Part shown: piece after piece, positions 1 through 1,065 of the stretch
Numbering within the stretch: position 1 is the stretch's first letter
Layout: each line of letters opens with the position of its first letter
Origin: a phage
Sequence record: OR846432.1
Length of the DNA stretch: 1,065 bases
Strand: one strand, 5' to 3'
Notes under the pieces: model-generated
The model's database searches: none
What the model was told of the DNA's origin: nothing
The model's input: the letters and a program-made list of their open reading frames with translations, nothing else
Translations under genes and position numbers: made by a program

Positions 1-1065
1 GGGGTACACAACTGTTCAGTGTGAGTCGTTGATTGAAGATATGATCGCGGGCGGGAATTTCAGCTGGCAGGCGTGCCATGAGATGTTTGCGCGTAAAGGG
101 CTTATGTTGCAGAAACAGCATCATGGTCTTGTGATTGTGGATGCGTTTAATCATGAGCTCACACCAGTGAAGGCCAGCAGTATCCACCCGGATTTGACGT
201 TATCCAGGGCTGAGCCGCAGGCAGGGCCATTTGAGATTGCAGGTGCAGATATATTTGAACGGGTGAAGCCTGAATGTCGCTACAATCCGGAACTTGCTGC
301 CAGCGATGAAGTGGAGCCCGGCTTCCGGCGCGATCCTGTACTGCGTCGTGAACGCCGTGAAGCCCGTGCAGCTGCGCGGGAAGATTTGCGCGCGCGTTAT
401 CTTGCATGGAAGGAGCACTGGCGTAAACCCGACTTACGTTACGGAGAACGGTTACGGGAAATTCATGCTGCCTGCCGTCGGCGCAAGGCGTATATCCGTG
501 TGCAGTTCCGGGATCCACAATTGCGTAAGCTGCATTACCATATTGCGGAAGTGCAGCGTATGCAGGCGCTGATCAGGCTGAAGGAGAGTGTGAAGGAAGA
601 GCGGTTGTCACTGATTGAGGAGGGTAAGTGGTATCCTTTGTCCTACCGGCAGTGGGTGGAGCAACAGGCGGTACAGGGAGACAGAGCTGCATTATCACAG
701 TTACGTGGCTGGGATTATCGTGATCGTCGCAAAGACAAGCGACGAACAACGAATGCCGACCGCTGCGTGATTCTCTGTGAACCGGGAGGAACTCCACTTT
801 ATGAAGACACTGGCGTTCTCGAAGCCCGTCTGCAGAAAGATGGCAGTGTGCGTTTTCGTGATCGGAGGAATGGCGAGTTAGTCTGTGTGGATTATGGGGA
901 CCGTGTGGTGTTCTACCATCATCAGGACAGAAATGAACTGGTGGATAAGCTGAATCTGATTGCTCCTGTATTGTTTGATCGTGAGCCAGGAATGGGTTTT
1001 GAACCGGAAGGCTCATATCAACAGTTTAATGATGTATTTGCGGAAATGGTGGCCTGGCATAATGC
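1..1065 (+). CDS. Internal fragment of a large conjugative relaxase-like protein (MOBP family, TraI/NikB-type), truncated by the window at both ends. Codon phase: first complete codon at 2-4, last at 1061-1063.
   Basis: Hand translation of + frame 2 gives 354 sense codons and no stop (GYTTVQCESLIEDMIAGGNFSWQACHEMFARKGLMLQKQHHGLVIVDAFNHELTPVKASSIHPDLTLSRAEPQAGPFEIAGAD...VFAEMVAWHN). An open frame this long is very unlikely by chance at roughly 50% GC. Leu is mostly CTG and Arg mostly CGT/CGC, as in enterobacterial coding DNA. The segment HEMFARKGLMLQKQHHGLVIVD...KASSIHPDL...GPF resembles, from memory, the region after the nickase core of IncP TraI-type relaxases (GL.L...G-hydrophobic-I-D/E...KAS..SRDL...GPF). 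No database search was possible. The coding call is strong; the product call is moderate. Confidence 0.75.

Follow-up and report, generated by a model that had tools for sequence, protein, structure and literature searches.

The 1,065-nucleotide (nt) stretch of sequence record OR846432.1 analyzed here (hereafter, the window) lies within a nikB gene, and it is well supported that its 3' part, nt 700-1063, encodes the greater part of the C-terminal module of a MOBP conjugative relaxase of the NikB type. The components of the module that fall within this region are likewise well supported, namely, the last helix of a helical motif, a variable basic linker, one β-strand and a divergent α/β domain of the LPD7 family (large polyvalent protein-associated domain 7). 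The best explanation of the data as a whole, whereby the module has this identity and the copy in the window is dead, appears probable to us.

The window is 100% identical to positions 52440-53504 of pO157, a plasmid of E. coli O157:H7 Sakai (AB011549.2), within the annotated nikB. Frame 2 of the + strand, on which all features described below are located unless indicated otherwise, is open throughout the window (354 codons), and this open reading frame (ORF; nt 2-1065), part of a 5'-truncated remnant of an IncK2/Z-type nikB, encodes NikB(pO157) residues 243-596 of 657 amino acids (aa), such that window residue 1 is NikB(pO157) residue 243. The annotated pO157 nikB coding sequence comprises 657 codons (1974 nt), of which 61 remain 3' of the window end, and its product corresponds to residues 248-899 of IncI1 NikB (899 aa) at 71% identity. 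A preliminary description of the window, made from the letters alone, had correctly recognized the C-terminal region of a MOBP relaxase gene whose protein runs past the window edge, and the ~120-residue peptide quoted there is indeed the last part of the frame-2 ORF; however, it took the gene for a long, intact relaxase, whereas the 5' part of this remnant is missing and, with it, the relaxase domain.

As the query for homology searches, we used the 219-aa C-terminus of the same protein with one substitution (P0001, the numbering of which is used for residues such as W22 and G85); conservation was assessed in an alignment of 31 C-termini, and domain architecture in 28 full-length homologs. An exhaustive HMMER search with this query in 1.84 billion proteins yielded 67 representative clusters, most of which match only query residues ~2-120; beyond residue ~120, matches over most of the length came only from the NikB clade and one 908-aa relative, and four shorter relatives reach query residues 131-156. 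A word-index protein search with the last 216 aa retrieved mostly NikB fragments, the distant relatives being reached by the exhaustive HMMER search. All 28 full-length homologs share the architecture in which a relaxase domain is followed by TraI_middle and the C-terminal module.

LPD7 was detected by Pfam at the aligned position, at the C-terminus, in 18 of these 28 homologs (E down to 6e-21). In the relative P0077, the match covers residues 625-718 (E = 2e-19), and the four relatives with the strongest matches score 46.5-69.7 bits, above the Pfam gathering score of 27 bits. Comparison of the NikB-clade segment with 12 LPD7 segments using hhalign gave a probability of 91% (E = 1.1e-6, 75 columns), and a hidden Markov model (HMM) built from the 12 LPD7 segments only matched NikB over the equivalent of nt 824-1063 (20.4 bits, HMM positions 5-79 of 88). 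The C-terminal block contains the core pattern [DN]-G-x-[VI]-x-[YF] … D-x-G … A … G, where G85, D101 and G103 are invariant (31/31) and position 84 is D or N in 29 of the 31 sequences.

The AlphaFold2 (AF2) models agree with this assignment. The NikB module was predicted with a local distance difference test score (pLDDT) of 84 and a template modelling score (pTM) of 0.74, and the P0077 module with a pLDDT of 92.8 and a pTM of 0.80; in both models, the elements follow the same order, that is, helices, a strand, a four-stranded meander, a helix, a strand, a helix and a long C-terminal helix. As delineated by the Pfam matches of homologs, hhalign, the HMM and AF2, the divergent LPD7-like domain (PF18821 family) extends from nt 818 to the end of the window at nt 1065 and terminates ~40 nt beyond it. 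Its predicted strands map to nt 818-832, 848-862, 878-892 and 902-916, followed by a helix (929-976), a strand (998-1009) and a helix that starts at nt 1019 and is interrupted by the end of the window, just beyond which there are a long helix and a disordered tail. The module thus agrees with LPD7 in profile similarity, in the core residues, in the fold order of the predicted elements and in its architectural position, and these comparisons show that Pfam under-calls LPD7 in NikB-type relaxases.

Two points weigh against this assignment: Pfam did not match LPD7 on the window protein, the 657-aa ORF or the last 216 aa, even at E <= 10, and the scores that link NikB to LPD7 are moderate. A profile of 30 module sequences compared with all PDB chain sequences found none below E = 0.1, and a Foldseek search against the PDB gave no significant match to the module. 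Other searches were similarly negative: on IncI1 NikB, LPD7 was not matched by Pfam at E <= 0.1; in the Pfam scans of the window protein, the full ORF and the last 216 aa, only TraI_middle was matched; phmmer with the full ORF against PDB sequences returned nothing; and the matches of the module profile in the PDB, to FlgG, ribosomal S12 and GyrB, were at the chance level. The expectation of the preliminary description that this region folds is borne out by the AF2 model (pLDDT 84), and of the structural comparison proposed there, the model was confident and the PDB search was without a significant match. Its statement that the region cannot be assigned is superseded by the helical motif of family NF041893 followed by the divergent LPD7; it holds with respect to function, given that LPD7 is still functionally uncharacterised and that, in a review from 2025, the C-terminal domains of relaxases continue to be drawn as 'unknown function'. 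Similarly, the match to an already characterised domain that was named there as a possible refutation was obtained by half, LPD7 being catalogued but functionally uncharacterised.

Upstream of LPD7, the module belongs to a more widely conserved region. The NCBIfam model NF041893 (TraI/MobA(P) family conjugative relaxase) spans window residues 2-317, so that the first two thirds of nt 700-1063 are within the region that is conserved family-wide; the score is 156.7 bits, compared to a cut-off of 250, for a 354-aa window fragment that covers only model positions 192-494 of 502. This region includes a three-helix element (nt 593-730; AF2, alignment and NF041893) with the motif W-V-E-x2-A-x2-G-D-x-A-A-x-S-Q-L-R-G-W-x-Y-x2-[KR]-R, the helices of which correspond to nt 593-619, 644-673 and 683-730 (residues 2-10, 19-28 and 32-47 in the AF2 model). 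The invariant residues among the 30-31 homologs compared are W22, A27, A34 and R39, with G40, Y43 and R47 conserved in at least 90%. The region at nt 700-1063 starts within the last of these helices (nt 683-730), which is part of the motif common to TraI/MobA(P) relaxases.

The helix is followed by the basic linker KDKRRTTNAD (nt 731-760), which is variable in length, consists of poorly conserved alignment columns and has a pLDDT of 68, the lowest block in the window part of the AF2 model. Next come a β-strand, RCVIL (nt 761-775), and a loop, CEPGGTPLYEDTGV, which together occupy nt 761-817; RCVIL is an isolated strand in the AF2 model (residues 58-62), equivalent to the strand at residues 45-47 in the P0077 model. 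Three cysteines, C59, C63 and C99 (nt 764-766, 776-778 and 884-886), are invariant in the NikB clade; C59 and C99 are absent from non-NikB relatives, and C63 is present in 11 of the 31 sequences. Two of the three flank the RCVIL strand, and the third is on the adjacent hairpin strand. At the extreme C-terminus, past the window (last 10 codons, positions 7217-7246 of the surrounding locus, L001), all five NikB-clade sequences have W-[ET]-P-P-[ST]-P, and several IncL/M-like relatives end with aromatic-x-P (…FKP, …WKP, …YNPK). The tail that carries this motif is predicted with low confidence and is probably disordered, and the motif could serve as a short linear signal for docking or secretion.

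The preliminary description also suspected a small internal duplication, that is, an origin of two RDRR…hydrophobic-Cys-Val units from one small ancestral element. The octamer CGTGATCG does occur twice, at nt 719-726 and 857-864, each time starting on a codon boundary and encoding R-D-R, and RDRR is present twice in the peptide; further, an in-frame 9-mer, TCGTGATCG, occurs twice, the similarity can be extended to 18 matches in 25 nt, and the peptides at the two sites are YRDRR and FRDRR. Nevertheless, all these similarities are at the chance level in mononucleotide, codon and protein shuffles. There are 15 pairs of repeated octamers in the window, whereas mononucleotide shuffling gave 10.6 ± 4.3 and codon shuffling 13.2 ± 4.9. 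The longest extension (25 nt, ungapped; 715-739 vs. 853-877) was equalled or exceeded in 40% of codon shuffles, and the local alignment of the two protein halves included YRDRR/FRDRR only, with a score of 24 (20.0 ± 3.5 in shuffled sequences, 299 of 2000 reaching at least 24). There is, therefore, no significant self-similarity at either the DNA or the protein level, and both copies of the octamer are chance repeats by the octamer, 25-nt window and shuffle tests.

Structure and conservation lead to the same result. The spacing of 10 to 15 residues between RDRR and the Cys-Val stretch, as originally described, is wrong for copy 2: R-C-V is 10 residues after the first RDRR, whereas L-V-C-V is only 3 residues after the second. 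In the AF2 model, the conserved helix has the first RDRR (nt 719-730) as its last turn, whereas the second (857-868) completes the second strand and forms the turn of the LPD7 hairpin, with LVCVD (878-892) as the next strand; the second RDRR and LVCVDYG (878-898) make up the first LPD7 β-hairpin. The second RDRR is, moreover, within a clade-specific two-residue insertion that is gapped in 14-22 of the 31 aligned homologs, and the elements of copy 2 are not maintained even in the NikB clade, where R92 is present in two of the five sequences and V100 in one, the other four having T. The alignment of homologous C-termini, which had been proposed as a check, does not show conservation of RDRR...C.V as a repeat. 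The two elements are unrelated parts of the structure that are alike by chance, each being conserved within its own structure rather than as a copy of a common unit; we assign practically no probability to the internal duplication, which is effectively refuted.

The pO157 gene itself is a remnant. Pfam did not detect the relaxase domain PF03432 (HUH, MobA/VirD2 nuclease) in the 657-aa ORF; in IncI1 NikB, this domain occupies residues 85-203. DNA homology to the intact IncK2/Z relaxase gene (903 codons) begins at L001:5228, 690 nt inside that gene, and the truncation breakpoint region, L001:5228-5276, corresponds to pO157 51667-51715, upstream of the window. An in-frame stop is located 17 codons 5' of the annotated pO157 nikB ATG, so that the annotated start is merely an internal Met codon. 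In intact plasmids, nikA/mobA is directly upstream of the relaxase gene; nikA and oriT are not present directly upstream of pO157 nikB, and psiA and a parB/hok-like gene occupy the place where they would be expected. The plasmid is typed as non-mobilisable, and in a survey of plasmid pseudogenes, nikB is reported to be non-functionalised in 98% of pO157-like plasmids (bioRxiv 10.1101/2023.11.08.566193). Given the truncation, the replacement of nikA/oriT by psiA and hok-like genes, the non-mobilisable typing and the prevalence of non-functionalised nikB, the window therefore belongs to the headless remains of an I-type conjugation module. The C-terminal module in pO157 is most likely inert, because the remnant is devoid of the HUH relaxase domain, nikA and oriT. 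The gene and its status as a remnant are already known.

Over the nikB part, pO157 and the IncK2/Z plasmid differ by 10 mismatches in 2022 nt (99.5% identity), 5 synonymous and 5 non-synonymous, too few to be interpreted in terms of selection on the remnant. We considered whether the remnant might be alive, with an internal start, such that the inert protein would, for example, block the transfer of incoming IncI/K plasmids by occupying the coupling protein. In favour of this scenario, the reading frame is uninterrupted over 1974 nt, and 602 plasmid records carry it with an identity of at least 99%; the near-identity to the IncK2/Z gene, however, indicates only that the deletion is recent and carries no selection signal. 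No promoter-like site was found within about 250 nt upstream, and the number of such sites in L001:4900-7400 is at the chance level. Among the matches listed, 13 of 15 have no protein-coding feature under the match, in line with pseudogene annotation, the exceptions being two Sakai records. A live remnant thus appears very unlikely to us.

For the module in intact relatives, we tentatively propose a role as a non-catalytic docking or translocation-signal domain that addresses the coupling-protein complex. In the LPD7 part, only G, D, G and structural residues are invariant, and, judging by the alignment, this conservation (Gly, one Asp and the hydrophobic core) does not look catalytic. LPD7 was defined as a globular domain in proteins of conjugative elements by Iyer et al. 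and is outside their set of potentially enzymatic LPDs (PMC5512222). In the gene table for the type IV secretion system/transfer module of pRAS2, lpd7 appears as a gene of its own next to virD4 and traD (PMC13627098). The domain may act through protein-protein docking or as a translocation signal, presenting the relaxase, to which the T-strand is covalently bound, to the type IV coupling-protein complex, which is built on the DotL/IcmO-like TrbC in the case of IncI-type plasmids. We lean towards docking because of the role of LvgA as the adaptor through which a subset of effectors is connected with the Dot/Icm coupling-protein complex (interactions described in PMC7251119), because I-type conjugation systems and the Dot/Icm system are sisters, because TrbC is IcmO/DotL-like, and because transfer of IncI1 requires both nikB and the IcmO-like trbC (PMC4288162). 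Substantial reservations apply, given that the Foldseek search of the PDB gave no significant match and that the profile search in PDB chain sequences revealed no sequence signal.

The principal alternative is that the LPD7 module acts after transfer, in the recipient, or binds DNA, where, similarly to other polyvalent-protein domains of conjugative elements, it might contribute to recircularisation, priming or protection of the incoming single strand. LPD7-bearing relaxases are not known to be restricted to Dot/Icm-like systems, which speaks against docking, as does the origin of the LPD7 definition in polyvalent proteins that act in the recipient cell, which points to a post-transfer role. 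Those proteins are delivered with DNA and are dominated by ArdC-N domains, which bind single-stranded DNA, and primase domains, and the relaxase itself is transferred with DNA (PMC5512222); in addition, the basic linker KDKRR adjoins the domain. This linker, however, is variable in length and composition, and neither Pfam nor the PDB sequence profile search detected similarity to known nucleic-acid-binding domains. We regard this alternative as rather unlikely, and docking as a tentative preference.

It is also conceivable, albeit doubtful, that, in MOBP relaxases, NikB among them, the C-terminal LPD7 module represents an LvgA-like adaptor fold fused to the enzyme. The LvgA structure 7bwk was not among the matches of the 30-sequence module profile in PDB chain sequences, and a link between relaxases and LvgA was not found in the titles and abstracts that were searched; in the literature searched, we came across no domain-level study of the NikB C-terminus and nothing on LPD7 function. 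If this resemblance is real, the relaxase would carry its own copy of a domain that Legionella employs as a free subunit linking substrates to the DotL complex, which would explain how the relaxosomes of I-type and other MOBP systems are recognized by coupling proteins without chaperones of the IcmS/IcmW/LvgA type. It would also provide a testable hypothesis on how type IV coupling proteins recognize MOBP relaxases.

The 5' part of the window contains the last tandem copy of the TraI-like middle domain (PF22863) in NikB, at nt 62-235 (Pfam, residues 21-78, E = 2.1e-7); in the full 657-aa remnant, PF22863 is matched in two stretches (E = 2.3e-16). The tandem copies are located at nt 62-235 of the window and at L001:5276-6240, and BLASTP self-similarity of the pO157 ORF and IncI1 NikB suggests that there are three. 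Between the TraI_middle repeats and the C-terminal module, nt 299-700 encode an Arg/Glu-rich, presumably helical stretch (RRDPVLRRERREARAAAREDLRARYLAWKEHWRK…) that is inside NF041893. On the - strand, the coding frame is overlapped by two antisense ORFs, at nt 573-1016 (147 aa) and 159-518 (119 aa), which lack Pfam matches and were taken as shadow ORFs. An Rfam scan of the window returned nothing at E <= 1, and no inverted repeats were found in the window. Downstream of nikB, an ORF of 143 aa (L001:7317-7748) encodes a TolA C-terminal domain (Pfam, E = 5e-14). This ORF follows nikB in both pO157 and the IncK2/Z plasmid and is absent from the IncI-gamma/K1 plasmid examined; the DNA match between pO157 and IncK2/Z extends through it, and pO157 acquired it along with the nikB remnant.

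LPD7 and the TraI/MobA(P) family have already been catalogued; what is added here is the assignment of the NikB C-terminus to a divergent LPD7 and a defined helical motif, the rejection of the repeat, and a structural lead to LvgA. For pO157 itself, this carries little weight, the stretch being left over from a conjugation system that has been lost. On a more general note, the analysis provides a domain map of the ~220 C-terminal residues of the NikB-type relaxases, a part that had not been assigned before; these enzymes drive the spread of resistance plasmids of the IncI, IncK, IncB/O and IncL/M groups. In IncI1 NikB numbering, the invariant residues include R723, G769, D785 and G787.

Compared to known systems, the pO157 protein shares the TraI_middle repeats, the helical region and the C-terminal module with both IncI1 NikB (R64/ColIb-P9 family) and the IncK2/Z relaxase; with the latter, it also shares the downstream TolA-C-like ORF, and the C-terminal 216 residues of the two proteins are 99.5% identical. 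Unlike the IncI1 and IncK2/Z genes, the pO157 copy is missing about the first 230-245 codons (the HUH relaxase domain) as well as nikA and oriT, and it resides on a non-mobilisable IncF virulence plasmid. With LPD7 (PF18821), which is C-terminal in TraI/MobA(P) relaxases, NikB has in common the [DN]-G-x-[VI]-x-[YF] … D-x-G core and the predicted order of elements, whereas it differs from typical members in a 2-residue insertion in the first hairpin, F in place of Y in the first strand, the cysteines specific to its clade and the greater length of the loop that precedes the last strand, and is below Pfam detection. Finally, the members of the NF041893 family (IncL/M 'NikB'/TraI and RP4-like TraI relatives) resemble NikB in TraI_middle, in the Arg-rich helical region and in WVE…SQLRGW.Y..[KR]R up to the start of LPD7; most of these relatives, however, are 620-740 aa long and have one TraI_middle copy, whereas NikB has extra copies.
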